Positions 1 to 49,772 of a stretch of 64,000 nucleotides of DNA are shown piece by piece. This DNA is from Deltaproteobacteria bacterium. Its GTDB lineage: Bacteria; Myxococcota_A; Polyangia; Polyangiales; Houyiibacteriaceae. The position numbers and the translations under genes were made by a program. A model generated the notes under the pieces. It saw only the letters and a list, made by a program, of their open reading frames with translations. It did no database searches and had not been told where the DNA came from. Every line of letters starts with the position of its first letter. Position 1 is the first letter of the stretch. The DNA lies in contig JAXMNT010000029.1 in assembly GCA_034670305.1 (NCBI GenBank), forward strand, positions 31,116 through 95,115, read 5' to 3'.

Positions 1-2824
1 TCAGGACGACATCGCCCGGGCCGGCCTCGGTGACCCACTTGCGGCGCTCCTCGGTCGAGGAACCCGCTTCGAGGCGGCGCACCTTGAGGGTGCCAGCGAA
101 CTTCTTGGACTGTTCCGCCCAGCCGGACACGACACTGGTCGGCGCGACGACGAGCGCCGGGCCCGACGACGCGCGCGCGAGGAGCAGCGCGAGGGTTTGC
201 ACGGTCTTGCCGAGACCCATGTCGTCCGCGAGGCACGCGCCGAAGCCGAGTTCGGTGAGCCGGTGAAGCCAGACGAACCCTTCGTCCTGGTAGGTCCGCA
301 GCTCGGCGGTCAGCTCTTCGGGGAGCGTCGGCCGGGTGTTCATCACGTGCAGCATGCGCTCGCGTCGTTCGGCGGCGCGGCCGAGCAGTTCCGGTTCGAG
401 CACACTGCGCTCGAGCGAGAGCAGCAGCGATGGGTGGAGCTTGCCCTCCACCCGATGCGCTTCGATCCGCGTCAGTTCTTCGCGGAGCTGATCGCTCAGC
501 CGGACCAGTCGGCCGTCGTCGAGCGTGATGTACCCGCGGCCATCGCGGGCCGCTTCGAGCAGTTCGCCGAGCGCGACCACGTGGTCCTCGTCGACCTGGA
601 CCTCGCCCTTGATTTCCAGCCAGCCGCCGGCGCCCATCGCGATGCTCGCGCGCACCCCGAGCACGCCGACTTCGCCGGCGACGCGCAGCGGACGATCCTG
701 GCGCCAGTCGACGGCCACCCCGGCTTCGGTGAGTTGCGCGAGCAGCTCGAGTGCCTGTTCGAGGTTCTCGGTCTGGCCGCGGGCGTCGCCCTTCATGGAG
801 AGGCACTGGTCGAGCAGCGCGGCTGCCAACGCCGTCTCTTGGTCGAGGGCACGGCGCACCGCGCGCGGGCCACTCGGCTCCGCGATCATCCAGGAGGTGG
901 AGCCTTCGCCGGGATCGGCGACCGGGCCACCGGGTCCGAAGGGCGAGACGACCATCTCCCACGCGACGCCGGTCTTGCAGCGGCGCAAGCGGACCCGCGG
1001 GGCGGGGTCGCCATCGACTTCGCCGGGGAGCGCGGTGTCCGCGCGCAGGTCGACCGCGCCGACCAAGTTCACGGCGGTGTCGACGAGATCGCGTTCGGCT
1101 TCTTCGGGCACGCTGCGCATGCGGCTGGCCAAGCTGGCGAGGCGCGCGTGGGCGGCATCGAAGGTGGTGACGACGAAGTGATCGCCTTCGTCTTGCACAC
1201 CGGGTTCGGTCGGCTCGAGGGTGAGCGAGAGGCCTTCGTCGGTGCGGCGGATGCGGAGCGCGATCCGTCCACGACGGACCGGCATCGGGCGGGACGGATC
1301 ATCTCGCGAGACAACTCGGGGATGTCCGATCAGCACATCGAGCACGGCCGGGTCGAACTTTGCGGCGTCCTGATCGCCGAGCGCGATGTGGTCGACGATG
1401 GCTCGATCCTCGGGGCCGGCTTTGTCGGCCAACCGATCGCTGGCCATCGCGCGGCCGCGGGTCCACGCGCCGTCGCGGCTGCGGGTCTGCAAGCGCGGAC
1501 GAAGGGAGAAGCCGGGCGCTTCCCGTTCGGTGCGGAGTTCGTAGACGACGCGCTCTTCGACCGTCTCGGTTTCGAGGGACACCGCGAGCGCGCCGAGTTC
1601 GGCGAGCGAGGTGCGCCAGGAAGCGGGCGGACGGAGAATCGACGCCCATCGACCGACGGCTTCGTCGTGCTCCGCGTCGCGAATGATCGCGCGGGCGGCC
1701 GCACACTCTGCCGCCACGCCGAGCCAGCGCGCTTCGGTGGCGCGTTCTTCACACCGACGCAGGGTCGGTTCGAGGTCGGTCTCCCAGACGTCTCCGCGCC
1801 ACACCCGGACCAGCGCGCCCGCGAGGGCGGCCCATCCCGGTTCGGTGACGAGCGGAGAGAGCGGCACGTCTTCGCCGAGACACGCCCGCATCGAGCCAAG
1901 CTCTTCCGGGAAGGCGGAGCCGGCCTGGACCGAAAAGACGCCACGGGCGTCCTCTTCTCGTTCGGCCGCGATCAGAAGCGCGAGGTGCAGCAGACCGTGG
2001 ATGTCCGGCAGCACCGCGCGGCCGCCACTCATCTCACGGACAGCGGCGCTGTAGGCGGTGTCGAAGTTGTCGAGCGCCGCGTCGCGTCCGGCGTGAACCT
2101 GGATCGAACCGCGCAGGGCCATCAGGTCGACGGTGCGCGGGGCGGCCAATCGGAGGGCGGTCTCGTGGCGGCCTTCCACCCACGCGTGGAGCGCGAGGCC
2201 GAGGCGCACGTCGTCCCAGTCCTCGAGCTCTGCGCCTGCTTCGAGGGCGTCGTCGTCGCGGCGCCAATCGTCGAATGCTTCGACGAGCAGAACGCCGACC
2301 GCCCATGCGCGCGAGTCCGCGGGGAGCGTGTCGACGCTGCGGCCATCGAGATCGAACAACGAACGCAGGCGGAAGGTGGACTCTTCGGAGCGCAAGCTGG
2401 CGCGCAGGCGGCGCGCCTCGCGGCGGCGTCCGAGCAAGAGCGCGGCGCGGAGGTGGGCCCGGGCGGACCGCACGTTGTCGGCAGGTTCCCCGAGCGCCTT
2501 CTTCAGCACCGCCGCGCGGGCTTCGAAGTCACCGTCCTCCACGAGCGTGTCGGTGCAGGCTCGGAGGAGGTTCGCTTCGAGTGCGACGTCGCGCCCGTCG
2601 CGGGTCAGCGCGCGTGCGGCCTCGAGCTGTTCCACGATCCGCTTGGCGCGGTCCGCGTTCAGCAGGCTTCCACTGCGGGCACGCACACCGGCGGCCGAGA
2701 GCGCGTCGCCGAGCACGGACAGCGGCACCGGCACACCGATGACTGCGAGCAGCTCGCACACCGAGCGTTGGTCAGGCGAGAGCGCCCGCGTCACGATGGG
2801 CGCGGACTGAAGTTGGTCGCTCAA
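1..2824 (-). CDS. SNF2/SWI2-family helicase/ATPase, 3' part runs off the window edge
   Basis: Not in the ORF track. Minus-strand translation near 190-310 gives ELRTYQDEGFVWL and GACLADDMGLGKTVQTL (SNF2 Q-motif and motif I). An in-frame TTG at 2824 overlaps the cysN stop (TTGA). The + ORF 197..3019 is its in-register antisense shadow. Start is inferred. Confidence 0.85.
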   Translation of the reverse strand, partial: MSDQLQSAPIVTRALSPDQRSVCELLAVIGVPVPLSVLGDALSAAGVRARSGSLLNADRAKRIVEQLEAARALTRDGRDVALEANLLRACTDTLVEDGDFEARAAVLKKALGEPADNVRSARAHLRAALLLGRRREARRLRASLRSEESTFRLRSLFDLDGRSVDTLPADSRAWAVGVLLVEAFDDWRRDDDALEAGAELEDWDDVRLGLALHAWVEGRHETALRLAAPRTVDLMALRGSIQVHAGRDAALDNFDTAYSAAVREMSGGRAVLPDIHGLLHLALLIAAEREEDARGVFSVQAGSAFPEELGSMRACLGEDVPLSPLVTEPGWAALAGALVRVWRGDVWETDLEPTLRRCEERATEARWLGVAAECAAARAIIRDAEHDEAVGRWASILRPPASWRTSLAELGALAVSLETETVEERVVYELRTEREAPGFSLRPRLQTRSRDGAWTRGRAMASDRLADKAGPEDRAIVDHIALGDQDAAKFDPAVLDVLIGHPRVVSRDDPSRPMPVRRGRIALRIRRTDEGLSLTLEPTEPGVQDEGDHFVVTTFDAAHARLASLASRMRSVPEEAERDLVDTAVNLVGAVDLRADTALPGEVDGDPAPRVRLRRCKTGVAWEMVVSPFGPGGPVADPGEGSTSWMIAEPSGPRAVRRALDQETALAAALLDQCLSMKGDARGQTENLEQALELLAQLTEAGVAVDWRQDRPLRVAGEVGVLGVRASIAMGAGGWLEIKGEVQVDEDHVVALGELLEAARDGRGYITLDDGRLVRLSDQLREELTRIEAHRVEGKLHPSLLLSLERSVLEPELLGRAAERRERMLHVMNTRPTLPEELTAELRTYQDEGFVWLHRLTELGFGACLADDMGLGKTVQTLALLLARASSGPALVVAPTSVVSGWAEQSKKFAGTLKVRRLEAGSSTEERRKWVTEAGPGDVVL

Positions 2825-4710
2825 GAACGCCGCCCCTGTCCGTGCGCGAGTTCCAGCTGTCCGCGCTCCTCGAGGAGCTCCACGACCGAGTCGGCGGCCT
2901 TGTCGATGCGTACTCGGTGCAGTGCCAAGGTCAGTTCCGGATGGTGCGGGGGTTCGAATCCGTCGAAGTCGGCGTCGGGCCGGCGTTCGCGACAGAGTTC
3001 GGGGTCGGTGTTCACGTAGATCTCGAAGAGGCGGTCTTCCGCGATGCGGGCGCGGAGCTGGTCGCGCTCCTGTACGGAGCGGCTCGGGAATGCGCAGATG
3101 CACACGAGTCCCGCTTCGCTGCAGGCTTTGGCCGCGGAGATCATGGAGCGAAGGTCTTCGCCCGTGGGATCGAGGACCGTGGCGGTGCGGCCGAGGTCGA
3201 AGAGCCGGCGCTCGAGCGCATAGGCCAGGCTCCATCGGCCGGAGCCGGGAAGTCCCACGAGCCACACGACCGCGCCGCGCTGCCCAGTCCGGTCGAGGCG
3301 CTCGGTCGGGCTGACCTGCGTCTTCGGGGTGAGCCCCGAGCCAGCGCGAAGTTCACGGAGCGCGGAGTCGAGGTCCTGGGCGTCCGCGCCCGAACGACCG
3401 ATCATGCCGGCGGCGACCGTGTCGTTGGTCAACGAGTCGACGAGAATGAACGCGCCGGTCGTCGGATTCTGCGCGTAGGCATCGTAGAACAACGCCCGGT
3501 GGGCGCTGAGCCGCACGAGGCCGATGTCGTTCAGCCCGAGTCGGTCCGTGTCGACCTCTTCGAGCGTGTCCATGTCCTTGCGCCAATGCACAGCGTCGAC
3601 CTGCACCCGGACGGACTGCGTCGTGTGCTTGAGCAGGTAGGTCTTCTGCGGGTCGAGTTCCGTCTCCGCCATCCAGACGACGTGTGCGTCGAACGCACGG
3701 CCGACGCGCGGCAGGTCTTTGGGCGAGACGATCATGTCGCCGCGGCTGCAATCGATCTCGTCCGCCAGGCGGATGCACACGGACTGAGGCGCGAACGCTT
3801 CCTTGAGTGGCCCGTCGAAGGTGTCGATCGAGCGGACCGTGCTCCTCTTGCCACTCGGCAAGACCATGATCTCGTCGCCTTTGCGCACGGCGCCGCTCGC
3901 GACCTGGCCGGCGAAGCCGCGGTAGTCGAGGTTGGGGCGCACGACGTACTGCACCGGGAACCGGAAGTGATCGAGGTTGCGGTCTCCGGCGATCGGGACG
4001 GTCTCCAAGTACTCGAGGACCGAAGGGCCGTCGTACCAGGGGGTCTCGTCCGAGGGGCCGACGATGTTCGCGCCCTTGAGTGCGCTGATCGGGAAGAACG
4101 TCACGTCGTCGATGCCGCCGCCGGCATCGCGCAGGCCCTGCATGAACGCGCGGAAGTTCTCGCGGATGCGTTCGAACACACCCTGGTCGTACCCGACGAG
4201 GTCCATCTTGTTCACGCAGACCGCGAGGTGCTTCAGTCCGAGCAGCGAGGCGATGTAGCCATGCCTGCGGCTCTGCTGGAGCACGCCGAGACGCGCGTCG
4301 ATCAAGATGAGCGCGACGTTCGCGGTCGACGCGCCGGTCACCATGTTGCGGGTGTACTGAACGTGTCCCGGGGTGTCGGCGATGATGAACTTGCGCTTGT
4401 CGGTCGAGAAGTACCGGTACGCGACGTCGATGGTGATGCCCTGCTCGCGTTCGGCGCGCAGACCATCGGTGAAGAGCGAGAAGTCGATCTCTTCGCCCTC
4501 GATGCTGGAGGCGCGCTTCACGGCTTCGAGCTGGTCTTCGTAGACCATGCCGGTGTCGTGCAGCAGCCGACCGATCAACGTGGACTTGCCGTCGTCGACG
4601 CTGCCGACTGCGACGAAGCGCAGCAGCTCTTTGTGCTGGTAGCGGTCGAGGTAGGCGCCGACGTCCTTGCGAAGGAGCGCGTCGTCTTCTTGGGTGAACG
4701 AGGTGCCCAT
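2821..4710 (-). CDS. cysN: Sulfate adenylyltransferase subunit 1 (CysN GTPase) fused to a degenerate APS-kinase-like (CysC) domain
   Basis: GSVDDGKSTLIGRLL, DGLRAEREQGITIDVAYRYF, DTPGH, NKMD, RFPVQYV, TGAFILVD motifs; C-terminal VVWLVGLPGSG CysC-like domain. Confidence 0.97.
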   Translation of the reverse strand: MGTSFTQEDDALLRKDVGAYLDRYQHKELLRFVAVGSVDDGKSTLIGRLLHDTGMVYEDQLEAVKRASSIEGEEIDFSLFTDGLRAEREQGITIDVAYRYFSTDKRKFIIADTPGHVQYTRNMVTGASTANVALILIDARLGVLQQSRRHGYIASLLGLKHLAVCVNKMDLVGYDQGVFERIRENFRAFMQGLRDAGGGIDDVTFFPISALKGANIVGPSDETPWYDGPSVLEYLETVPIAGDRNLDHFRFPVQYVVRPNLDYRGFAGQVASGAVRKGDEIMVLPSGKRSTVRSIDTFDGPLKEAFAPQSVCIRLADEIDCSRGDMIVSPKDLPRVGRAFDAHVVWMAETELDPQKTYLLKHTTQSVRVQVDAVHWRKDMDTLEEVDTDRLGLNDIGLVRLSAHRALFYDAYAQNPTTGAFILVDSLTNDTVAAGMIGRSGADAQDLDSALRELRAGSGLTPKTQVSPTERLDRTGQRGAVVWLVGLPGSGRWSLAYALERRLFDLGRTATVLDPTGEDLRSMISAAKACSEAGLVCICAFPSRSVQERDQLRARIAEDRLFEIYVNTDPELCRERRPDADFDGFEPPHHPELTLALHRVRIDKAADSVVELLEERGQLELAHGQGRRS

Positions 4711-5651
4711 CAGAAGTATCCCTCGCGCTTCTTGCGCTCCATCGAGCCGTCTTCGTCGAAGTCGATGAGCCGACCCTGCCGTTCGGAGAACGTCGTCATC
4801 AGCATCTCTTGGATGACGCCTTCGACTGTGTCGGCTTCAGACTCCACCGCGCCGGAGAGCGGGTAGCAACCGAGGGTCCGGAACCGGACCGATTTCATTT
4901 GCGGCTTCTCGCCGTCCTTCAGCCGCATCCGGTCGTCGTCGACCATGATGAGCGAACCTTCGCGCTCCACCACCGGGCGCTTCTTGGCCAAGTACAGCGG
5001 CACGATCGGAATCTCTTCGCGAAGGATGTAGAGCCACACGTCGAGCTCGGTCCAGTTGCTCAACGGGAACACCCGGACGTTCTCGCCCTTCGTGATGTTG
5101 CTGTTGAACAAGGTCCAGAGCTCGGGGCGCTGGTTCTTCGGATCCCACTGATGGAACCGATCCCGGAACGAGTAGATGCGCTCCTTGGCGCGTGAACGTT
5201 CTTCGTCGCGGCGGGCGCCGCCGAACGCGCAGTCGAAGCCGTGTTTGTCGAGCGCCTGCTTGAGCCCGACGGTCTTCATGATCGTCGTGTACTTGTTCGA
5301 TCCGTGGTCGAACGGGTTCACGTTCTGCGCTTTGCCCTCCTGGTTGGTGTGAACAATCAGGTCCAGGCCATGTTTGCGCGCGGTGTGATCCCGGAAGGTG
5401 ATCATCTCCCGGAACTTCCAGGTCGTGTCGACATGCAACAACGGAAACGGCAGCGGGCCGGGCGCGAACGCCTTCAGGGCCAGCCGGAGCATCACCGAAG
5501 AGTCCTTCCCGATGCTGTACATCATCACCGGGTTGTCGAACTCCGCGGCGGCTTCGCGAAGAATGTGGATGCTTTCCGCCTCGAGTTGCTCGAGGTGGGT
5601 GAGTCGTCGTTGAAGTTCCGTCATCGGGAGGGCCGACGTACGTAGCCTCAT
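4710..5651 (-). CDS. cysD: Sulfate adenylyltransferase subunit 2
   Basis: [49 protein letters not shown]. Stop overlaps the cysN start (TGATG). Alternative start at 5624. Confidence 0.97.
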
Positions 5652-5687
5652 GCCCGGTCCCCGGCAAGTGGGCGGGGCCGGAGTCGC

Positions 5688-7574
5688 TCAGTCGCCCGCG
5701 CCCACAGGCGGATCGTGCTCGGGGCCTGGCTCTGGGTCGGCCACCACAGGCAGCGAGAACCCGAAGGTCGCCCCGGCGCCTGGCGAGCGCGCCCAGACCT
5801 CGCCTCCGTGCCGCTCGACGATCTTCCGGACGATCGCCAGTCCGATGCCGGTGCCCTCGAACTCGGTGAGGTCGTGCAGCCGCTGGAAGGGCTGGAAGAG
5901 CTTGCCGGCGTATGCTTCTTCGAAGCCGGCGCCGGAGTCGCGGACCTCGTACCGCAGCATGTCGCCTTCGCTCCATCCCCGGACGTGAACGACGGGATCC
6001 TCGGCCTGCGCGCTGTACTTCACCGCGTTGCCCACGAGGTTCGCCCAGACCGTGGCCAGCAAGGTGTAGTCGCCCTGTGCCGATGGCAGGGGCTCTTCGA
6101 CGTTCAGGCGCGTGTCGACCCCCTCGGTGGTGGCCAGGTTGAACGCCTCCCGGACGAGGCCGCCCATCTCGATCGGTCGCCTGCGGATGGCGTCGCGCCC
6201 TGCACGCGCGAGCGCCAAGAGGCCGTTGATGAGTTCGCCCATCCGCTGCGCGCCGCCGACGGCCTTCTCCAGGAGGAGGACCGCGCGGGGGTCCAGGTCC
6301 TTGCCGTAGCGCTCGAGCGCCAGGGTGGAGTAGCCCTGCACCGCGCGCAGAGGGGCCCGAAGATCGTGCGAGACCGAGTAGCTGAACTGACGGAGCTCCT
6401 CGTTGACGAGTTCCAGCGCAGCGGTGCGTTCCTCCAGCGCGGCGCTGGTGGCTTCCAGGGTCTTGCGAGCCTCCGCGCGCTCGGTCACGTCTCGGGCCAC
6501 GATCGCGACGCCGCGTTTGCGGTCGAAGTCGAGCGGCGAGAACCCGAAGCTCAGGATGCGGTCCACCACCCGTGCGTCCTCGAGGGTGGTGCGGACGCCA
6601 CTCTGCGCGATGTCGAGCGCGCCGCCGATCGTGAGCGCCGCGGGGGCGGCGAAGAGGGAGGGGAAGGGCCGACCGACGGCTTCTTCCTCCGAGTGGTCGA
6701 ACAGCCGCTCGGCACCGCGGCTCCAGCTGGTCACGAGTCCCGCCGCGTCGACCGATGCGATCCCGTCGTCGGTCGCATCCACCACCGCCGCCACGAGGCG
6801 ACGGGCTTCGTTGGCCTGGGTCTCGGCGGTCACGTCGCGAATGCAGCTGACGAGTCCAGCGGGGCGACCGTTGTCGTCGCGGACCATCGACGTGGACTGG
6901 GCGACTCGAATGCTCGTTCCGTCCTTGCAGGTGTGAATGGCTTCCCCGAACCACTCGCCGCCCATCTCCACGCTCTCCCGGGTGGGCGCATCGCCCGGTC
7001 GCACCGGGGTGGCCTTCAGCACCTCGGACAGGGGCAGTCCGAGGACCTCCACGGCCATCCACCCATAGAGCCGTTCGGCCGCTGGGTTGAAAGTCTCGAT
7101 GACGCCGGTCTCGTTGGTCACGATGATCGCATCGGAGACCTGGCTGACGATGGCGGCATGCCGGCGGAGCGAGGACTCCGCGCTGCGCATGTCTCGGATG
7201 TCGCGCCACACCAGGCGCGTGGAGACGATGTGGCCTTTCGCATCTCGGACCGCGGTCGCGTTGAGCAGCACGGGGATCGGCGGTCCAGAGCCTTTGACCT
7301 TCAGGTCGAGTTCGGCGTTCCGGACCATGCCGCGCGCTCGAAACATCGCGGACAAGTTCTTGGCTTGTGGATGCGTGCTCGGTGGGTACCGCTCGAGCAC
7401 CGATTGTCCGACTACTTCTTCGCGTCGGAACCCTGTGACCCGCAGAAGCGTGCGGTTGCACCGAGTGACGATGCCCGCGGCGTCGACGCTCGCGTACATG
7501 TCCGGTGCGTTCTCATACAGGTCTTCGTAGTCTCGCTCCCCGGCGGGAGCCTTCGCGGCCGATCCCTCACCCAT
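5688..7574 (-). CDS. Cytoplasmic multi-PAS (3x) sensor histidine kinase
   Basis: Three PAS-like repeats, H-box SVSHDLRAPL, NLVGNAVKY, DSGAG, FQPFQRLH, GTGIGLA. Start moved to ATG 7574 (G-rich SD-like stretch upstream; avoids overlap with the upstream gene). Confidence 0.92.
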   Translation of the reverse strand: MGEGSAAKAPAGERDYEDLYENAPDMYASVDAAGIVTRCNRTLLRVTGFRREEVVGQSVLERYPPSTHPQAKNLSAMFRARGMVRNAELDLKVKGSGPPIPVLLNATAVRDAKGHIVSTRLVWRDIRDMRSAESSLRRHAAIVSQVSDAIIVTNETGVIETFNPAAERLYGWMAVEVLGLPLSEVLKATPVRPGDAPTRESVEMGGEWFGEAIHTCKDGTSIRVAQSTSMVRDDNGRPAGLVSCIRDVTAETQANEARRLVAAVVDATDDGIASVDAAGLVTSWSRGAERLFDHSEEEAVGRPFPSLFAAPAALTIGGALDIAQSGVRTTLEDARVVDRILSFGFSPLDFDRKRGVAIVARDVTERAEARKTLEATSAALEERTAALELVNEELRQFSYSVSHDLRAPLRAVQGYSTLALERYGKDLDPRAVLLLEKAVGGAQRMGELINGLLALARAGRDAIRRRPIEMGGLVREAFNLATTEGVDTRLNVEEPLPSAQGDYTLLATVWANLVGNAVKYSAQAEDPVVHVRGWSEGDMLRYEVRDSGAGFEEAYAGKLFQPFQRLHDLTEFEGTGIGLAIVRKIVERHGGEVWARSPGAGATFGFSLPVVADPEPGPEHDPPVGAGD

Positions 7575-7611
7575 CGCTTCCCCCCACCCAACCAGTGCTG
7601 CGAACTCGAAC

Positions 7612-9588
7612 TCAGGCGACCCTGCGGTCCCTCGCCCGCAGAGCGTGCAACACCCCAGAGAGGATGTCTTTGGGCGTGACGGGTTTTTGTACGAACATCG
7701 CCATCTCCCGCTCGAGCGTTTCTGCGATCGGCCCGGTCGGGCGGAACCGCGAAGTGACGACGAACCCCGCGTTGGGACACACCCGCTTGAGTTCCCGGCT
7801 GAGCTGAAGTCCATTGGCGCCGGGCAGCACGACGTCGGTCACGATGACGTCGATCTTCTCGCGGTGTTCGGTCGCGAGCGCACGTGCTTCGTCGGCGGTC
7901 TTCGCGACGAGCACCCGCAACCGACAGTGTTCGAGCGCGCCGAGCGTGATCTCGCGGGCCAACTCGTCCCCGTCGATGATGAGCACGGTCTCTCCCGAGG
8001 GCACCCGCGCAGCGACGATCCCAGACTCTGCCGGCCTGTCGGACCGGCGGGCCACTGGAAGGATCACCCGGAACGTGGAACCCACCTTGGGTTTGGACAC
8101 GATCGACACATAGCCCCCGCTCTGTTTCACGATGCCGTACACCGTGGCGAGGCCCATGCCGGACGCGTCCTTTTTCGTGGAGAAGAACGGGTCGAACACG
8201 CGCGGCAGAATGTCGGCGCGGATCCCGCTGCCGGTGTCGGTCACACTCAGCACGGTGTATTCGCCCGGTGCGATCGTGAACCCGCCGGGATCCACATAGG
8301 CCTCCCGGACCTGCAAATGATCGGTGCCGATCACGATGCGCCCGCCGTAGGGCATCGCGTCGCGTGCGTTCACCAGAAGGTTCATCAGGATCTGCTCGAG
8401 CTGCGTGCGGTCCAGGTGCACGTCGTGCACCAGGGCATTCAGTTCGTGCGCGAGCTCCACGTTCTCCCCGAGCACGCTGCTGAGCAGTCGTTGCGTCTCC
8501 TGCACGACGTCGTTGAGGTCGATGCGTTCCAGCGTTTGTGGTTGGCGCCGGGAGAACGCCATCAGCTGCTGAATCATCGACCGGCCACGGCCCACGGCCT
8601 CAAGGGTCGCGGCGGCGTCGGTCTGGACGTTCTCGTCTTCCACCGCGCTGTGGATGCGGCCGGCGTACGTGCCGATGAGCGACAAGATGTTGCTGAAGTC
8701 GTTGGCCATGCCGCTGATGAGTTGGCCGATCGCCTCCATGCGCTGAGAAGCGTGCAAGGCCCGCTCGAGGTGTCGTTGCTGGGTGACGTCCACCATCGTG
8801 ACCACCACCCGCGCGAGGTCCTCGACCTCGGAGGGCAGCCGCGCCGAGATGGTGAGGTTCGCGCTGCCCTCTGCGGTCATCATCGTCTCGGTGAACTGGA
8901 CTTGGCGCTCGCCTACCATGAAATCGCAGAGCAACCGGGTCCAGATGCGGCGCAGCTGCATGCTGCGAGAGCTTCCGCGCACCATGCCGCGTGCCGCGTC
9001 GTTGGTGTGCACGGTGACCACTCTGCCGGCCGCAGACGCGATCGCTTCCTCCACCCGAACCCCTGCGCTGCGGTCTCGGCACAGCGCCGTCCACGCACCG
9101 CGGGCGTCGATTTCCCACACCCCGACGCTGAGACTCTCGAGGATCTGGCGGTTCCGTTCGGCTTCTTGAGCGAAGGCTGCCTCCGCTTCCCGCACGCGCT
9201 CCCGCCCAGCCTTTTCGCGCAGCGCGCGTCGGACCGCGTCGCACAACCGGCCGGTTCGGTTCTTGTCCACGAAGTCGCTGACGCCCGCGCGGATGGCTTC
9301 GACCGCCCGCTCTTCGCCGATGTGCCCGCTCACCAGAATGAAGGGGACCTCTTGGCCCAGCTCCTCGAGGATCTGAAAGGCCTTCAGACCGTCGAACCGC
9401 GGCATCGAGTAGTCGCTCAGGATCACGTCCCACGGCTGGCGGAGCGCCTGGCGGTAGTCGGTTTCCGTGCAGACCTGGAGGCGGCCGTCGATTCGAAACT
9501 CGGCCTGCAGGCACTGCAGCAGGAGGTCGGCGTCGATGGCCGAATCCTCGACCATCAAGACCCTGAGCGATGTTTGACTCGACTTCAC
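7612..9588 (-). CDS. Hybrid REC-(PAS-like)-HisKA-HATPase-REC protein; phosphoacceptor His replaced by Asn
   Basis: N-terminal REC (VEDS, SDYSMP), H-box GQLISGMANDFSNIL, NLLVNARDAM, DTGSGI, FDPFFSTK, GMGLA, C-terminal REC (TDVVLP, QKP). GTG at 9588 preceded by GGAG. Confidence 0.9.
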   Translation of the reverse strand: MKSSQTSLRVLMVEDSAIDADLLLQCLQAEFRIDGRLQVCTETDYRQALRQPWDVILSDYSMPRFDGLKAFQILEELGQEVPFILVSGHIGEERAVEAIRAGVSDFVDKNRTGRLCDAVRRALREKAGRERVREAEAAFAQEAERNRQILESLSVGVWEIDARGAWTALCRDRSAGVRVEEAIASAAGRVVTVHTNDAARGMVRGSSRSMQLRRIWTRLLCDFMVGERQVQFTETMMTAEGSANLTISARLPSEVEDLARVVVTMVDVTQQRHLERALHASQRMEAIGQLISGMANDFSNILSLIGTYAGRIHSAVEDENVQTDAAATLEAVGRGRSMIQQLMAFSRRQPQTLERIDLNDVVQETQRLLSSVLGENVELAHELNALVHDVHLDRTQLEQILMNLLVNARDAMPYGGRIVIGTDHLQVREAYVDPGGFTIAPGEYTVLSVTDTGSGIRADILPRVFDPFFSTKKDASGMGLATVYGIVKQSGGYVSIVSKPKVGSTFRVILPVARRSDRPAESGIVAARVPSGETVLIIDGDELAREITLGALEHCRLRVLVAKTADEARALATEHREKIDVIVTDVVLPGANGLQLSRELKRVCPNAGFVVTSRFRPTGPIAETLEREMAMFVQKPVTPKDILSGVLHALRARDRRVA

Positions 9589-9647
9589 CTGTATTCTCCG
9601 TCCCCCCAAAGGCAGGTCCAATAGACCACCGGTTGCACTGTGAGCGG

Positions 9648-9811: not shown

Positions 9812-12800
9812 ATGTTTCGTGTCGCCGTCTCCCTCAGCCTGCTCTTGATCGCCCAGTACGGGCTTCTCGAAACCCTGTCCGCGTCTGCCCAGACGCAGGT
9901 CAAACCGCGCTTCATGATCCTGTTCGACACGTCGGGCTCGATGGCGGTCGACCTCGACGGCAACCCGACGTTCGGAGACGGGGTGCCCGGCGTGACCGAG
10001 GGACTGGACACGGACTGCGACGGCGAAGCCAACGACAGCCGCATGTTCGTCGCGAAGGAAGCGCTCACGAACATGGTGCTCGCGTTCGGCGACATCGAGT
10101 TCGGACTCACTTCGTTTCCACGGTTCGCCGCCGACCGCGTGGCCTGCACGAACGACCCGGGCCACGGCATGCCCTTCGCGGTCACACACCGCATCCAGGA
10201 CCAGGAGTGCAACATCGCGTCCGGTCCGTTCGTCGGCGGCATCGGCGACCCGACGCTGAACACCGGCACCGCGCTCAACAACGGCAACTGCGGCGCCGAG
10301 TGGAACGGCATGCCCGGCATCGACCTGCCCATCGACGGGATCCCCGCGGCGTGTCGCCCCGGTACGCCTGGCAACCCGGCGGCGCGGCTCTGGGCGGCGG
10401 GATCTCCGAGCTTCTGCACCAACTACCTCGGCGCGTGTCCGGACACGGTCTTCCCCGGGCTCTACACCTTTCCCGACGGCGACGTGCTGGTCGGCTTCAA
10501 CGGCTTCGGTTGGCCGACCACCATCGACAACCGGGTCGGCATCCTGCGGTGGATCGACAACGAAGAGACGCTCTTCGATCCGTCGACGACGACTGGCAAC
10601 TACTGCAACCACGCCACCGGCCGCGACTGCGAACTGCGCAGCACTGGGCCGACGCCGCTCGGCGGCACCCTGCGCGCGGCGCGCGACTACATGCTCCCCA
10701 TCCGCGCCGGCGATTCGGTGGGCAGCTGCCGTCCCTACACCGTCTTGTTGCTCACCGACGGTGCCGAGACCTGCGACGCGGCGACCGCGCCGGTGACCAC
10801 CGCGGGGGAACTCGCGGCGGCCGGCATTCCCGTCTACGTGGTCGGGCTCAGCATCGGACCGGGTGGGCGCACGCTGCTCAACGACATCGCCACCGCGGGC
10901 GGCACCGACGCTGGCGCTGCGGGTGGCGACACGGCGTTCTTCGCAGACGACTCCGTCACCCTGGCGGCCGGCCTCTCGGACATCGTCGCCGACTCGCTCT
11001 TGATCGAAGAGTGCAACGGTGTGGACGACGACTGCGATGTGCTCATCGACGAAGGCTTCGTGAAGTTCTGCAACCGTCCGGCTGGGGTCACCACGCAGAG
11101 CCTCTGCGCCAACCCCGGCGAGACGGTGTGCGATGGCGTCGACGACAACTGCGACGGCCGCATCGACGAGGGGCTGCTCAACGCCTGCGGGGCTTGCGGT
11201 CCGCCGCCGGCCGAGGTGTGCGACGGCGTCGACAACAACTGCAACGGGGTCATCGACGAAGGCGACGTCTGCGCGATGTGTCGTCCCGAAGCGGAGATCT
11301 GCGACAACGACGACAACGACTGCGATGGCTTGATCGACGAGAGCCTCTCCCGCGCATGCGGCGTGGATCTCGGCGAGTGCCGCGCCGGCACCCAGGTGTG
11401 CACGGCGGGCGTGTTCGGCGCGTGCGACGACGTGGGCCCGACCCCCGAGATCTGCGATGGGCTCGACAACGACTGCGACGGGTTGCCCGACAACCTGACG
11501 CGGCCGTGCGGTTCCGACGTCGGCGAGTGCAGCCCAGGCATCCAGCGCTGCATCGCGGGCGACTTCGACACCACCTGCGAAGGCGAAGTCGGACCGGAAC
11601 CGGAGAGCTGCAACGGGCTCGACGACGACTGCGACGGCCGCACCGACGAGATGGTGCCGGGCACCGGCGTCGCGTGCGGCGTCTCCGAAGGCGTGTGCAT
11701 GCCGGGCATGACCGCCTGCGTGGACGGCGCGATCGAATGCGCGGGCGGCACCGGGCCCACCGAAGAGGTGTGCAACGGACTCGACGACGACTGCGACGGC
11801 CTCGTCGACGACGGCATCTTCGTGGGCACGCCCTGCGGCACCGACGTCGGTGAGTGTTCGCCCGGATTGAACCGCTGCGTCGATGGCGCAGTGGAGTGTG
11901 TCGACGCGATCGGTCCCACGAGCGAAGCGTGCGACGGACTCGACAACGACTGCGACGCGGCCGTCGACGAAGGCCTCGGCATCGGAGAGCCGTGCGGCGC
12001 GGACGACGGACTCTGCATGGCGGGATCGCTGCAGTGTGTGGACGGACTCGAGACCTGCGTGGGCGAGGTGCCACCGGGCCGCGAGACCTGCGACTGCGAC
12101 GACAACGACTGCGACGGAGCGATCGACGAGGAACCGGAGCTCGGTTCGCTGTGCCCCGACACCAGCACCTGCGTGGAGTGCCAGTGCGCGCTGCCGTGTC
12201 AGGTCACCGAGTTCGGGTTTGGATGTCCGACCGGCCGCGCGCCGCGCGAAGTCGGCGACGAGTGTTTCTGCGTTGCCGAACGGTGCTCGCCGGAGGTGTG
12301 TGAAGGCGAGACCGTCGAACGCGAAGGCGACGTGCTGTGCGCGCCGGGCGACGACGGCGTGAGCATCTGCGTCTGCAAGAACAACGAGTGCACGTTCCCC
12401 TGCGACGGGGTCGTCTGTCCCGAAGGCACCGTCTGCGACCCGCGCGATCCGGCGGGGCGCTGCGCGGAGGACAGCTGCCGCGGGCTCGGGTGTGCGGCCG
12501 GCGAGGTGTGCAACGTCGTGACCGGGACCTGCGACGAGGACCCGTGTCTGACTGCGGACTGTGAAGCGACCGAGGCCTGCCGCGAAGGCGTGTGCGAACC
12601 GTCATGCGCCGAAGTCGAATGCGCGTCGGGCGAGCGCTGCCGTTCGGGTGTGTGTGAGGTCGACCGCTGCGTGGACGTCTCGTGCGGTGGCCAGGTCTGC
12701 GACCCAGCGACCGGGATGTGCGTCGACGATGCGTGCGATGGCGTCCGTTGTCCGACCGGCTCCTTGTGCGATCCGGTGAGCGGCGACTGCGAGGTGGATC

Positions 12801-15184
12801 CCTGCACGCGGCTGACCTGTCCCGACATGCAAGTGTGTCTGGACGGGGAGTGCACGAGCCCGATGGAGAGCGACGATCCGCCGGACGCTGGGCCGCCGAT
12901 GGAGAACAGCCGTGTGCTCGCGGCGGGCGGCGGCGGCTGCGCCTGTGAGACGGCCGGGACGGGCGCGGGCCACGGGCTGTCGATTCTGTTCCTGCTCGGG
13001 TTCGTCTTCATCCGGCGGACGGGGAGGGGGCGCCGTGGCGCTCGCACCTTTCGCCGGATTGGAGCGGCGGCACGGCGCGTCGGGCCGATCGCCGCGCTGA
13101 CCTTGTCGCTCGGTTTGTCGAGCGGCTGCGACGTGACGCCGTTCTGCCTCGACTGCGTGGACGCCGGCGTCGGGGCGATCGACTCCGGTCCCGACATCGA
13201 CACCGGCGTGCGAGACGCGGGCCCACCGGACAGTGGACCGGCCGACACCAACACGGACACACCATGCGTGGAGGGTGCGACCGAGTTGTGCAACGGCATC
13301 GACGAGGACTGCGACGGTACCGTCGACGAGGACGCCGACACGAGCAGCGACCCGAACAACTGCGGTGGCTGCGGTGTGCTCTGCGCACCGGCCGGCGCGT
13401 TCGGTGTGTGTGAAGACGGGACGTGCAGTCTCGGCCCGTGCGACGTCGGGTTCTTCGATCTCGATGGCGACCCGGACAACGGGTGCGAGTACCGCTGCTT
13501 GCCTTCCGCGGTGGACGATGCGGTGTGCGATCGCCGAGACGACGACTGCGACGGCACAGTCGACGAAGACGTGGATCTCATGACCGACGCGGCGAACTGC
13601 GGCGCGTGTGGCCGCACCTGCCGGTTCGCCCGAGGCATGGCCGCGTGCGTGGATGGCGCGTGCGAGCTGGCGGGCTGCGACGAGAACTTCTTCGATCTGG
13701 ATGGCGCCGATGGGAACGGGTGCGAGTACGCGTGCGTCGTGGCGTCGCCGGCGGTGGAGACGTGCAACGCGCGCGACGACAACTGCGACGGCGTCGTCGA
13801 CGAGGGCAACCCGGACGGTGGCGGCGCCTGTGGTTCGGTGGTCGGCGAGTGCACGAGCGGCACGGAGCGATGCACCGATGGGGTGCTGGTGTGCGTCGGG
13901 TTCGGCGGGCCGACGGCGGAGTCGTGCAATACACGCGACGACGACTGCGATGGCGCCACGGACGAAACCACGAACTTCCAGAGCGACCCGAACAACTGTG
14001 GTTCGTGTGGCACCCGCTGTGCGGAACCCAACGCGGTGACCCGATGTCAGACCGGAAGCTGCGTAAGGCTCGCCTGTTCTCCCGGGTTCGTGGATCTCGA
14101 TCCAGGCGTGGCCGGCTGCGAGTACGCGTGCGACCCGCGCGGCGCCGAAGTGTGCAACGGCGTGGACGACGACTGCGATGGGGACGTGGACGAAGGGCTC
14201 ACGCCGCCGAGCAACTTCTGCAACGCCAACGGCGTGTGCGGCGGGACCTCGCCCACGTGTGACGGGGCCGCGGGCTGGGTGTGCAACTACACCGACGCGA
14301 ACTACGAGGAGAGCGAGACCGCGTGTGATGGACGCGACAACGACTGCGACGGCGGCATCGACGAGACCCACCCGACCAAGGGCGACTCGTGTGCCAATGG
14401 GCTCGGTGCGTGTGCGCGCACGGGCACCGTTCGATGCACCGCCGACGGGCTCGGTGTCGAGTGCTCCGCGTCGATGGCGGGAACCCCGACGGCCGAGGTC
14501 TGCAACGGGGACGACGACGACTGCGACGGCCGCAGCGACGAGGGCATCTTGCCGGGCGTGTCGGGCTCGGGCGTGGTCACCACCCTGGTGAGCGGCGGCG
14601 TGCACGTCATGCGCTACGAAGCTTCGCGCCCCGACGCGACCGCGGGCGCGGCCGGGTCGGGCAACACCGCGGCGTGTTCCCGGAACAACCGCATCCCGTG
14701 GACCACGGTGACCTGGCCCGATGCCCAAGCGGCGTGTTGCGCGCTCAACGACGGCGGCGCGTGTTTGGGGGGCGGGCGCGGCTGGCGGCTCTGTGATGGA
14801 TCGACCTGGCAGGCGGCGTGCGAAGGGCCGGCCGGCACGTGCGACTGGTCGTACGCGAGCTCGTGCTCCACCTCGCAACCGACGGTCTGCAACGGCGCGG
14901 AGTTCGACTCCGATCCGGGCATGAGCGGCGACCAGGACGAACTGCGCGGCACCGGCACCTTCGGCAGCTGTCGAACGGCGTGGGGTGGTGCCGGTTCGGT
15001 GAACGACCTGAGCGGCAACGTGAAGGAGTGGGTGTTCGAAGAGGTCGCGCCGGGCATCCACCCGCTCCGGGGCGGCTCCTACAACAACGTCGAGGACGGG
15101 CGCATGTGCGGCTTCGACTTCACCGTGGGCGACGAATCGTTCGCGTTCCCGAACACCGGCTTCCGCTGCTGCTGGCACCCGTAG
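9812..15184 (+). CDS. Giant Cys-rich surface protein: signal peptide, VWA, MopE-like repeats, internal MYXO-CTERM, internal lipobox, more MopE-like/STIG1-like repeats, C-terminal FGE/SUMF1-like domain
   Basis: VWA MIDAS DTSGS...TPL...LLTDG; 16 C[DN]xxD[DNE][DN]C[DN]xxxD repeats; GGGGCAC-TM-RR at aa ~1039-1075; LSSGC at aa 1102-1106; C-terminal RYEASRPD, DLSGNVKEW, LRGGSY, GFRCC. Confidence 0.88.
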   Translation: MFRVAVSLSLLLIAQYGLLETLSASAQTQVKPRFMILFDTSGSMAVDLDGNPTFGDGVPGVTEGLDTDCDGEANDSRMFVAKEALTNMVLAFGDIEFGLTSFPRFAADRVACTNDPGHGMPFAVTHRIQDQECNIASGPFVGGIGDPTLNTGTALNNGNCGAEWNGMPGIDLPIDGIPAACRPGTPGNPAARLWAAGSPSFCTNYLGACPDTVFPGLYTFPDGDVLVGFNGFGWPTTIDNRVGILRWIDNEETLFDPSTTTGNYCNHATGRDCELRSTGPTPLGGTLRAARDYMLPIRAGDSVGSCRPYTVLLLTDGAETCDAATAPVTTAGELAAAGIPVYVVGLSIGPGGRTLLNDIATAGGTDAGAAGGDTAFFADDSVTLAAGLSDIVADSLLIEECNGVDDDCDVLIDEGFVKFCNRPAGVTTQSLCANPGETVCDGVDDNCDGRIDEGLLNACGACGPPPAEVCDGVDNNCNGVIDEGDVCAMCRPEAEICDNDDNDCDGLIDESLSRACGVDLGECRAGTQVCTAGVFGACDDVGPTPEICDGLDNDCDGLPDNLTRPCGSDVGECSPGIQRCIAGDFDTTCEGEVGPEPESCNGLDDDCDGRTDEMVPGTGVACGVSEGVCMPGMTACVDGAIECAGGTGPTEEVCNGLDDDCDGLVDDGIFVGTPCGTDVGECSPGLNRCVDGAVECVDAIGPTSEACDGLDNDCDAAVDEGLGIGEPCGADDGLCMAGSLQCVDGLETCVGEVPPGRETCDCDDNDCDGAIDEEPELGSLCPDTSTCVECQCALPCQVTEFGFGCPTGRAPREVGDECFCVAERCSPEVCEGETVEREGDVLCAPGDDGVSICVCKNNECTFPCDGVVCPEGTVCDPRDPAGRCAEDSCRGLGCAAGEVCNVVTGTCDEDPCLTADCEATEACREGVCEPSCAEVECASGERCRSGVCEVDRCVDVSCGGQVCDPATGMCVDDACDGVRCPTGSLCDPVSGDCEVDPCTRLTCPDMQVCLDGECTSPMESDDPPDAGPPMENSRVLAAGGGGCACETAGTGAGHGLSILFLLGFVFIRRTGRGRRGARTFRRIGAAARRVGPIAALTLSLGLSSGCDVTPFCLDCVDAGVGAIDSGPDIDTGVRDAGPPDSGPADTNTDTPCVEGATELCNGIDEDCDGTVDEDADTSSDPNNCGGCGVLCAPAGAFGVCEDGTCSLGPCDVGFFDLDGDPDNGCEYRCLPSAVDDAVCDRRDDDCDGTVDEDVDLMTDAANCGACGRTCRFARGMAACVDGACELAGCDENFFDLDGADGNGCEYACVVASPAVETCNARDDNCDGVVDEGNPDGGGACGSVVGECTSGTERCTDGVLVCVGFGGPTAESCNTRDDDCDGATDETTNFQSDPNNCGSCGTRCAEPNAVTRCQTGSCVRLACSPGFVDLDPGVAGCEYACDPRGAEVCNGVDDDCDGDVDEGLTPPSNFCNANGVCGGTSPTCDGAAGWVCNYTDANYEESETACDGRDNDCDGGIDETHPTKGDSCANGLGACARTGTVRCTADGLGVECSASMAGTPTAEVCNGDDDDCDGRSDEGILPGVSGSGVVTTLVSGGVHVMRYEASRPDATAGAAGSGNTAACSRNNRIPWTTVTWPDAQAACCALNDGGACLGGGRGWRLCDGSTWQAACEGPAGTCDWSYASSCSTSQPTVCNGAEFDSDPGMSGDQDELRGTGTFGSCRTAWGGAGSVNDLSGNVKEWVFEEVAPGIHPLRGGSYNNVEDGRMCGFDFTVGDESFAFPNTGFRCCWHP

Positions 15185-47834: not shown

Positions 47835-49772
47835 ATGTTGGCACTTCGATCGAAACAAGGCTCCTCACTCTTTGCTGGGATCTCCCTGCTCCTGTGTGGC
47901 GCGTGTTCCCAGATCGATGCCGCCGGCGCTCGGAGCGACCAGGTCGTCTATGGCGACGACGACCGCACCGACGTGTACGCGCACTCGAGCGCGGTCTGGC
48001 GGCAGCGCGCGATGGAGTCGATCGTGGCGCTGGTCCCGAGCGGCCGCGTGGACGAAACCGATCCGGACAACGTCCTCATCGAAGGGGACACGTTGGCCGT
48101 GGCGCGCAACCTCTGCGAAGGCGAACGCTTCCGCGACCAGCCGACCGGCGCGAACTGTTCGGGCACGCTGATCGATCTCGATCTCGTGCTCACCGCCGGT
48201 CACTGCATCGATGATCTGAGCGACTGCATGAACCAGCGCTTCATCTTCGACTACTTCTACGAAGCCGACGGAGTCCTCGCGACGATCGACGGTGCCGAAG
48301 ACGTGTACGGATGTTCGGAGCTCGTCGCCCGCGTGAACGATGGCGACACCGACTACGCGGTGGTGCGGCTCGATCGGGTGGTGGACCCCTCGCACGTGCC
48401 GGTTGCGGTCCGCATGGACGACACCGCGCTCCCCATGGACACCCCGCTCGTGGTGATCGGATTCGGCAGCGGCCTGCCGATGAAGATCGACGACGGCGGC
48501 CAGGTCACGAGCCCCGATCCCGCGATGCTCCAGTGGTTCGGCGCGAACCTCGACACCTTCGGCGGCAACTCGGGCTCTGGCGTATTCACCGACGACGGCA
48601 CCGTCGTCGGCATCCTCGTGCGGGGCGAACCGGACTACGTGTCGAGCGGCGACTGCCAGATCGTGAGCGACCTGCCGAACCTGCCCGACGACGGCTCCGA
48701 AGAAGAATGCACCTACGTGGGCCGCGCGCTCGAAGGGCTCTGCGCCACCGGCACCTCGACGGTGTTGTGCGGGGGCGGCGGCGGGGCATGCGACGCGTGC
48801 CGTGTGCCCGCGGACTGTTCGGATGGGTTCTCCTGCGTGGACAGCGCGTGCTTGCCCTCGTGCGGCGCGGCGATGTGTCCGGTCGGCTACGACTGTCTGG
48901 ACGACGGCCTCTGTCATCCACCGACCACCTTCGTCTGTGACGGAGTGGACGTCGTGAGCACCCGCTGCGGCCGAGAGACGGGCGTCGTCGAGACCTGCGA
49001 GGACTTCTGTCTGGCCGGTGCGTGCGTCGCGGGACCTCCCGGCGACACCTGCGAAGATGCGATTGAAATCGAGCCGGTGACCCAGACGCTCCGCGGCACG
49101 AACTCGAACCGGCACTCGAGCGCCGGTCGCGGCGACTGCGTCACCGGCGCCGAAGGCGTGGACACGCTCTACACCTTCACCATCGACCGCACCCACACCC
49201 TCAACGCGTACGCCGACGGTTCGGGTGGCCTGGACCCGGTGCTGCACCTGCGGCGCGTCTGCGACGACGAAGACACCGAGCTGGCCTGCGACGACGACGG
49301 CGGCCGCCGGCGAGACGCACAGTTCGACGTGGAACTCGATGCCGGCAGCTACACGATCTTCATGGACAGCTGGGGCGACACCCTCGGCGACTACCAGCTC
49401 GACCTCACGTTCGTGGCGATCGGGCTGCCCGACGCCGGACCGCCCGATGCCGGCCCTGCCGACGCGGGCCCTGCCGATGCTGGACCGCCCATCGTGGACG
49501 CTGGCCGGGATGGAGACGCGCCCGTGCCGCCACTGCTCGACGCAGGACCGGACAGCGGCGGACGCGACGCGGGACCGGCACGGCGAGACGCCGGCATCGA
49601 CGCGGGCCTCGACATGCGCTTCGACGCCGGGTTCGACGCGGGCGATCGGGAGTTCCGGACGGTCGAGTACGCCTGGTGCAACTGCCGTGTGCCCGGACCC
49701 GGCCAGGACGGTCCCTGGCCTGCGCTCACCGCAGGATTCTTGGCACTCGTCGCCCTCCGCCGCCGCACCTGA
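47835..49772 (+). CDS. V8/trypsin-like serine protease with Cys-rich region, PPC-like domain, DAG linker and C-terminal MYXO-CTERM
   Basis: VVYGDDDR, CSGTLI, TAGHC, DYA, DTFGGNSGS; LDPVLHL...LDAGSY; CNCRV...LVALRRRT. Alternative ATG at 47826. Confidence 0.9.
   Translation: MLALRSKQGSSLFAGISLLLCGACSQIDAAGARSDQVVYGDDDRTDVYAHSSAVWRQRAMESIVALVPSGRVDETDPDNVLIEGDTLAVARNLCEGERFRDQPTGANCSGTLIDLDLVLTAGHCIDDLSDCMNQRFIFDYFYEADGVLATIDGAEDVYGCSELVARVNDGDTDYAVVRLDRVVDPSHVPVAVRMDDTALPMDTPLVVIGFGSGLPMKIDDGGQVTSPDPAMLQWFGANLDTFGGNSGSGVFTDDGTVVGILVRGEPDYVSSGDCQIVSDLPNLPDDGSEEECTYVGRALEGLCATGTSTVLCGGGGGACDACRVPADCSDGFSCVDSACLPSCGAAMCPVGYDCLDDGLCHPPTTFVCDGVDVVSTRCGRETGVVETCEDFCLAGACVAGPPGDTCEDAIEIEPVTQTLRGTNSNRHSSAGRGDCVTGAEGVDTLYTFTIDRTHTLNAYADGSGGLDPVLHLRRVCDDEDTELACDDDGGRRRDAQFDVELDAGSYTIFMDSWGDTLGDYQLDLTFVAIGLPDAGPPDAGPADAGPADAGPPIVDAGRDGDAPVPPLLDAGPDSGGRDAGPARRDAGIDAGLDMRFDAGFDAGDREFRTVEYAWCNCRVPGPGQDGPWPALTAGFLALVALRRRT

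Follow-up and report, generated by a model that had tools for sequence, protein, structure and literature searches.

The window analysed here, i.e., a stretch of 64,000 nucleotides (31116-95115) of contig JAXMNT010000029.1 (C29), belongs to a deltaproteobacterial genome (GenBank assembly GCA_034670305.1) that is itself a 7.9-Mb metagenome assembly of 105 contigs. The gene in question is a single open reading frame (ORF) at 9812..15184, which stands alone on the plus strand and is flanked by minus-strand genes. It starts with ATG, runs for 1790 codons plus a stop without any internal stop codon, encodes 1790 amino acids and has a GC content at third codon positions (GC3) of 0.87. Within this one frame a Cys-bearing MYXO-CTERM-type tag is followed by an Arg-rich loop and then by a lipoprotein-type signal that ends in C1106, and it is this junction, together with what it may mean for the processing of the protein, that is discussed here.

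Residues 1039-1106 comprise GGGGC1043-A-C1045, a 10-residue spacer, LSILFLLGFVFI, RRTGRGRRGARTFRRIGAAARR, VGPIAALTLSLGLSSG and finally C1106, after which the protein continues with DVTPFCLDC. The tag itself (12929..13024; all features of the ORF are on the plus strand) was assigned with TIGR03901 and hydropathy and consists of GGGGC1043AC1045, the spacer, a helix at residues 1056-1067 and the first residues of the Arg cluster. The hydropathy peak of the entire protein falls on residues 1055-1067 (Kyte-Doolittle 2.71, 13-residue window), which are followed by RRTGRGRRG...RR; the second most hydrophobic window of this size lies within the N-terminal signal peptide. The Arg-rich loop (residues 1068-1089; 13013..13078) is predicted to be cytoplasmic and is the probable tail of the tag and n-region of the second signal at the same time. 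This second signal has the n-region RRIGAAARR, the h-region VGPIAALTLSLGL and the lipobox SSG directly before C1106, the uncharged run preceding this Cys being VGPIAALTLSLGLSSG; its h-region and lipobox (13079..13129) were recognized by hydropathy and by a match to a PROSITE-type lipobox pattern. The mature second half would start with C-D-V-x-P-F-C-x-D-C (13127..13156), a motif that is conserved across homologues. Since 719 residues lie downstream of the tag, it is not C-terminal, and since 1089 residues lie upstream of the second signal in the same frame, this signal is not N-terminal. GC3 remains at 0.86-0.88 in the frame of the ORF before, across and after the junction. The internal MYXO-CTERM-like tag followed by lipobox C1106 in one ORF, which formed the core of the original prediction, is thus confirmed by reading of the sequence.

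The two halves on either side of the junction are both large and repetitive. By eye, the N-terminus (MFRVAVSLSLLLIAQYGLLETLSASA) resembles a signal peptide (residues 1-26; 9812..9889), with cleavage predicted after ASA, and it precedes a VWA-like region (9908..10996) with a metal ion-dependent adhesion site (MIDAS)-like DTSGS at residues 39-43 (D39-T-S-G-S43). Pfam VWA (PF00092) scores a sub-threshold 17.6 bits on the protein (cut-off 23.8), with the DxSxS motif being present; homologues have precomputed PF00092 or PF13519 matches and one of them is named vWA domain-containing protein. Nine MopE-like Cys/Asp repeats (residues 401-768; 11012..12115) follow, and then a Cys-rich stalk and a PPDAGPP linker (12116..12928), which were read from the sequence and are alignable among homologues. 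Behind the junction there are seven further MopE-like repeats (residues 1160-1572; 13289..14527) and an FGE-sulfatase-fold domain (residues 1620-1786; 14669..15169), for which PF03781 gives a marginal 23.4 bits against a cut-off of 23.3 in this protein and 37.3 and 29.6 bits in paralogues. Both sets of repeats were assigned by pattern count, with nine copies of C-x3-D-x-[DN]-C-[DN] upstream of the junction and seven downstream, and by PF11617, which reaches 148.8 bits across 12 stretches. The predicted anatomy (i.e., signal, VWA, 9 + 7 MopE-like repeats and FGE fold) therefore stands, with the VWA match sub-threshold and the FGE match marginal.

The junction is not a peculiarity of this gene. 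When 41 related genomes were searched with residues 901-1300 of the ORF protein, 52 loci were obtained, which together with three from the window's own genome make 55 junction loci, of which 42 carry an in-frame fusion, 11 consist of two separate genes and two are frameshifted within the tag. The fused loci are drawn from 21 of the 41 genomes, covering eight families of one order, and four of them sit in one single-contig genome of 9.07 Mb. The two frameshifted loci, L043 (G036:C25) and L051 (G037:C1:358245-359452), have the frameshift between the Cys signature and the tag helix, and may be pseudogenes or assembly errors. A protein database yielded 560 matches to the junction region; 88 of the best 120 align across the junction and 81 of these possess what we call the seam, i.e., the tag and the following lipoprotein signal, the other seven having been dropped as misalignments of MopE repeats. 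The seam family thus comprises at least 81 database protein clusters, as counted from the best 120 of the 560 matches; 70 of these 81 proteins share the same mature N-terminus of the second half and 11 have other N-termini. One of them is a vWA domain-containing protein of Sandaracinus amylolyticus, encoded on a 10.75-Mb contig.

What is conserved at the seam was examined in a set of 71 proteins that was anchored on the motif following the lipobox Cys, a motif that includes this Cys, so that its presence at +1 is true by construction. All 71 possess the upstream G..C signature, the hydrophobic helix and the Arg pair, and all have Gly at -1. The PROSITE-type lipobox is found at the anchored Cys of 65 of the 71, compared to 433 out of 13,906 (3.1%) of the other Cys of the same proteins. 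The tag Cys and the lipobox Cys are 39-82 residues apart (median 60). The segment between the Arg cluster and the lipobox Cys is 20-52 residues long; it contains no fewer than 5 basic residues and no more than 3 acidic ones, its net charge is +3 or higher in every protein (71/71), and the uncharged run in which it ends measures 12-22 residues. Asp occurs at +2 in 52 of the 71. Also the 11 seam proteins with different mature N-termini keep [GA]-C after an uncharged run. The loop sequence, on the other hand, is not conserved among relatives, and in the shortest junctions the RRRR of the tag serves directly as the n-region of the next signal. Four of the database proteins (P0086, P0105, P0115, and P0118) combine the same first half and seam with different mature starts of the second half (e.g., C-Q-Q-D-P-F and C-R-L-N-P-Y), which suggests that the first half may have been fused to other lipoproteins as well. 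Some junction segments, including those of L009 and L020, give weak, sub-threshold matches to the NCBIfam families NF033207 (midcut-by-XrtH protein) and NF058595 (lipo-invert putative C-terminal anchoring domain), the names of which suggest that other mid-protein or inverted anchoring signals occur in curated families.

The split relatives show how the two states may be connected. In nine of the 11 split loci the stop codon of the first gene overlaps the start codon of the second as ATGA and in one as GTGA. In the remaining locus, L018 (G028:C163:13381-14616), the halves are in the same frame with one TGA between them and an ATG 6 bases on; this locus falls within a supported fused clade and could reflect a recent fission, readthrough of the TGA or an error in sequencing. 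The window's own genome provides a split pair on C20: a 2057-residue VWA/MopE protein that ends in ...ARRRRGVR-TGA, the stop of which overlaps the next ATG as ATGA, and a second gene for a 930-residue MopE lipoprotein (MNRMLLALVAVGGLLVLSSC-DTDPYC). This pair has the same domain content as the ORF, and the VWA domain of the split paralogue scores 30.3 bits (PF00092). In the split relatives the lipoprotein signal is N-terminal. An overlap of four bases, or a lone TGA, between the split genes implies that a small indel or a single substitution would be enough to interconvert the two forms. On a tree of 54 loci (L043 was left out) the fused/split label needs six changes, of which well-supported branches force at least two, and six of the split loci form one clade (support 96), although this is a quick maximum-likelihood tree without bootstraps that was rooted at the midpoint and is effectively unrooted. 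These results support the idea that fused and split forms interconvert in evolution. They also answer the question, raised with the original prediction, whether homologues are split or fused: both occur, and the same parts that surround an internalised tripartite signal in 42 of the 55 loci are separate adjacent genes in 11.

Within the window's genome the seam stands out among tags that are otherwise terminal. A six-frame search with TIGR03901 detected 60 tags above the cut-off, 56 of which end 0-18 residues before a stop codon. The other four are internal, with 298-1320 residues downstream, and in all four cases a hydrophobic run and then a lipobox Cys come next. Three of these four belong to paralogues of the ORF's family and the fourth to an unrelated Amidase_3 protein (L054; C33:13639-16314). 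The latter is encoded by an 891-codon frame and consists of Amidase_3, carboxypeptidase-regulatory-like repeats (three Pfam stretches), the tag, RGRTFGLLVAGLAVLGC and a final 298 residues, which have no Pfam match; GC3 is 0.84-0.86 on either side of its seam. The tag at about 49670-49772 of the window, to which that of the ORF had been compared beforehand, proves to be a genuine terminal tag (C29:80792-80881; 26.3 bits) that ends 1 residue before the stop. The genome also encodes the enzymes that processing would require: a myxosortase core (NF040914 Mrt_core, 121.5 bits against a cut-off of 100; C2:147073-147381), one LspA (PF01252, 111 bits) and three Lgt-like loci (PF01790).

Known systems provide partial precedents. 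In MYXO-CTERM tags a Cys motif precedes a helix and an Arg tail on the cytoplasmic side, their cleavage by MrtX depends on the Cys, and surface display of the tagged proteins proceeds via the type II secretion system (PMC11980579). Guo, Haft and Wall (mBio 2025, PMC11980579) described internal MYXO-CTERM motifs in ORFs as rare, and considered one such protein of M. xanthus, an adhesin combined with an outer-membrane barrel/OmpA part, to be a likely gene fusion of which the N-terminal part is processed, citing LPXTG work and an archaeal ArtA substrate in support. That protein resembles the ORF in that an adhesin-like N-terminal part ends in an internal MYXO-CTERM, with fusion and processing proposed; it differs in being a single rare case with a barrel/OmpA C-terminal part, and the passages of that paper drawn on here mention no lipoprotein signal after the tag (PMC11980579). 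The family of the ORF, in contrast, spans at least 81 protein clusters, always has a lipobox signal after the tag and has known split relatives. The archaeal case is HVO_0405 of Haloferax volcanii, in which two once-separate genes are fused and the central sorting signal is still cleaved, as seen by Western blot; its signal is of the PGF type, also tripartite, it is cut by the archaeosortase ArtA, and the passages of the paper drawn on here mention neither a second export signal nor a second lipid anchor (PMC7157517). TraA, the gene of which overlaps in a traA/traB pair, shares with the ORF the tripartite tag, the invariant Cys and cleavage by myxosortase, and the overlap of the partner ORFs recalls the ATGA of the split relatives, but its tag sits at the end of the protein, and each of the two partners is made as a separate protein (PMC11980579). 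By its name, NF033207 (midcut-by-XrtH protein) also has a mid-protein signal that is cut by a sorting enzyme, but it belongs to an exosortase system, and the matches obtained here, at 19.3 and 14.6 bits, are far below its cut-off of 45 and hence not members.

The M. xanthus protein with its proposed fusion and processing (PMC11980579) and the cleaved ArtA fusion (PMC7157517), as far as these sources are used here, make the original prediction that no example had been described too strong: internal tags by fusion are already known. The words internal, fusion and lipobox are absent from Haft's myxosortase preprint, and a search of full-text literature for internal lipoboxes or lipoprotein polyproteins returned nothing relevant. 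Within the literature searched, nothing has been published on the constant association of the tag with a lipoprotein signal, on how large and how old the family is, or on the conversion of one form into the other via ATGA.

The conserved architecture, the interconversion with split pairs and the enzymes encoded in the same genome, taken together with the lack of a general internal start for the second half (see below), lead us to the interpretation that the ORF arose by in-frame fusion of two adjacent genes, i.e., a gene for a MYXO-CTERM-tagged VWA/MopE adhesin and a downstream gene for a MopE/FGE-fold lipoprotein, and that its product is a hairpin precursor that myxosortase and Lgt/LspA would process into two proteins. 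We would put the probability of this at roughly 60%. At a lipobox, Lgt attaches the lipid and LspA makes the cut. In the proposed sequence of events the N-terminal signal would begin Sec export of the first half, the tag helix (1056-1067) would halt transfer and the Arg-rich loop would remain cytoplasmic, after which the hydrophobic run at residues 1090-1102 would restart export of the second half, so that the chain would form a hairpin in the inner membrane with both large parts outside. Lgt would then lipidate C1106 and LspA would cut before it, which would free the second half as a lipoprotein. The first half would be lipidated at C1043 or C1045 and cut near C1043 by the myxosortase of the genome, and a hairpin peptide of about 60 residues would be left over. 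The Asp at +2 may or may not act as a retention signal in this group, and the second product could thus reside in the inner or in the outer membrane. Two products are favoured mainly because fused and split forms appear to replace each other repeatedly in evolution, and because fused forms keep residues that would matter only for lipidation or cleavage.

Several points weigh against this interpretation. The topology of the chain, the two cleavage events and the order in which they occur, and the place where the products end up are inferred, and for every member of the family cleavage and lipidation are predicted from comparison of sequences. The lipobox of the ORF has Ser instead of Leu at -3, and the small residues at -1 and -3 of C1106 would also be compatible with signal peptidase I. 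Scoring of the tag with TIGR03901, a check proposed with the original prediction, gave a divided answer: excised junction pieces of the ORF protein obtain 17.1 and 17.6 bits, below the cut-off of 20, and the six-frame genome search gives the tag 22.9 bits, above it. Of 40 fused junction segments 29 match at E ≤ 0.1 and only 19 reach at least 20 bits, leaving 11 without a match at that E-value. To these points should be added the anchoring of the 71-protein set on a motif with the lipobox Cys, the provisional nature of the tree, and the possible dependence of the contig sets discussed below on the assembly.

The low scores also bear on a variant in which only one of the two cuts takes place, so that LspA frees the lipoprotein but the first half, its non-terminal tag not being accepted by myxosortase, remains anchored in the inner membrane by the hairpin, or the reverse. 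Internal tags do score lower on TIGR03901 (with 19 out of 40 at or above the cut-off), and myxosortase activity is documented, in the passages of PMC11980579 drawn on here, for terminal tags alone, a further argument against a double cut. However, the G..C signature is retained in all 71 fused proteins and would be needless for a plain anchor, a central sorting site is known to be cut in the archaeal fusion protein, and fused and split forms have replaced each other in evolution. We regard a single cut as unlikely, though it deserves to be taken seriously. Less probable still is that the precursor is not cut at all and stays in the inner membrane as one protein, its two periplasmic arms being held by a helical hairpin. 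Such a topology needs merely two hydrophobic segments and a positive loop, which the ORF possesses, but, against the background of a drifting loop, the GGGGC signature, the two Cys and the Gly at -1 (71/71) have been preserved, and split relatives produce two separate proteins from the same parts.

It seems highly improbable that the long frame is incidental and that translation initiates separately at an internal, perhaps non-canonical, start codon to give the second half. The only in-frame ATG, GTG or TTG between the Arg cluster and C1106 of the ORF is a TTG 8 codons before the Cys, in agreement with the earlier observation that the loop holds no in-frame ATG or GTG. The GTG at 13035 that follows a GGAGG was likewise correctly reported to be out of frame; its frame stops at 13097. 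The possibility that this GGAGG-GTG (13024-13037) is a relic start was considered and rejected, as the frame ends after 21 codons, and no evidence of use was found for this 21-codon frame (GTG 13035 to TGA 13097), which has GGAGG 6 bases upstream and lies within the loop-coding region. The ORF does possess an ATT at 13058 and the GGAGG at 13024, and four fused loci (L005, L006, L007, and L017) retain an ATG 16-21 codons before the Cys. However, the GGAGG is about 28 bases away from the ATT and the GTG that it precedes is out of frame, no ATG, GTG or TTG is present in the ORF's loop at a usable distance, and the first gene has no stop, so that it would be read through anyway. In 21 of the 39 fused loci of which the DNA was parsed, no in-frame ATG, GTG or TTG lies 12 or more codons before the lipobox Cys, and 11 of these have none at all; only seven of the 71 anchored proteins have a Met in this stretch. 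In the 21 loci without a usable start the second half can only be made within the long chain, and its separate translation from an internal start is excluded as a general mechanism.

That an assembly or sequencing artefact joined two genes is, finally, hardly credible: the source genome is a 105-contig metagenome assembly and the relatives L043 and L051 do carry frameshifts within the tag, but the junction is identical in four out of four contig sets and 42 fused loci occur across 21 genomes, one of them closed. In the contig sets, which stem from four samples of one study, the region 12600-13500 shows no differences and no gaps at a depth of 12-33; these are assembled contigs, in which minority variants would be hidden, and the samples are possibly the source of the DNA studied here and hence not independent of its assembly. 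The conserved junction in relatives is the stronger case against an artefact.

If both cuts of the proposed hairpin precursor occur, the ORF would encode a natural bacterial polyprotein, i.e., one chain that is resolved at the membrane by two lipid-anchoring systems. It would also be a ready test substrate for the questions whether a tag must be terminal, which enzyme lipidates the tag Cys and in which order the cuts are made; the products differ greatly in size from the precursor and are easily told apart. A wider and more tentative view, which we regard as somewhat less likely than not, is that in these myxobacteria the combination of a MYXO-CTERM tail and a lipoprotein signal constitutes a portable cut-here seam that gives rise to true envelope polyproteins with a fixed 1:1 pair of products. 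The Arg cluster would then be shared by both signals, so that fusion of any tagged gene to a lipoprotein gene downstream of it would leave function intact; delivery through one translocon would be followed by cuts of two lipid-anchoring pathways, and fusion might be favoured because it fixes the ratio and the co-location of the partners. The fused state is commoner than the split one in the ORF's family and persists across at least eight families of one order. For annotation this would also be of consequence, as such proteins now carry the names MopE-related, vWA domain-containing or SUMF1/EgtB/PvdO family protein, and in each case a single protein with a single location is assumed.

The genes upstream of the ORF, all on the minus strand (2821-9621 of the window), encode a CysN/APS-kinase-like fusion (GTP_EFTU + APS_kinase), a protein with a PAPS-reductase domain, a PAS histidine kinase and a hybrid kinase/receiver. 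The gene for this hybrid histidine kinase/receiver is divergent from the ORF at 9812..15184.

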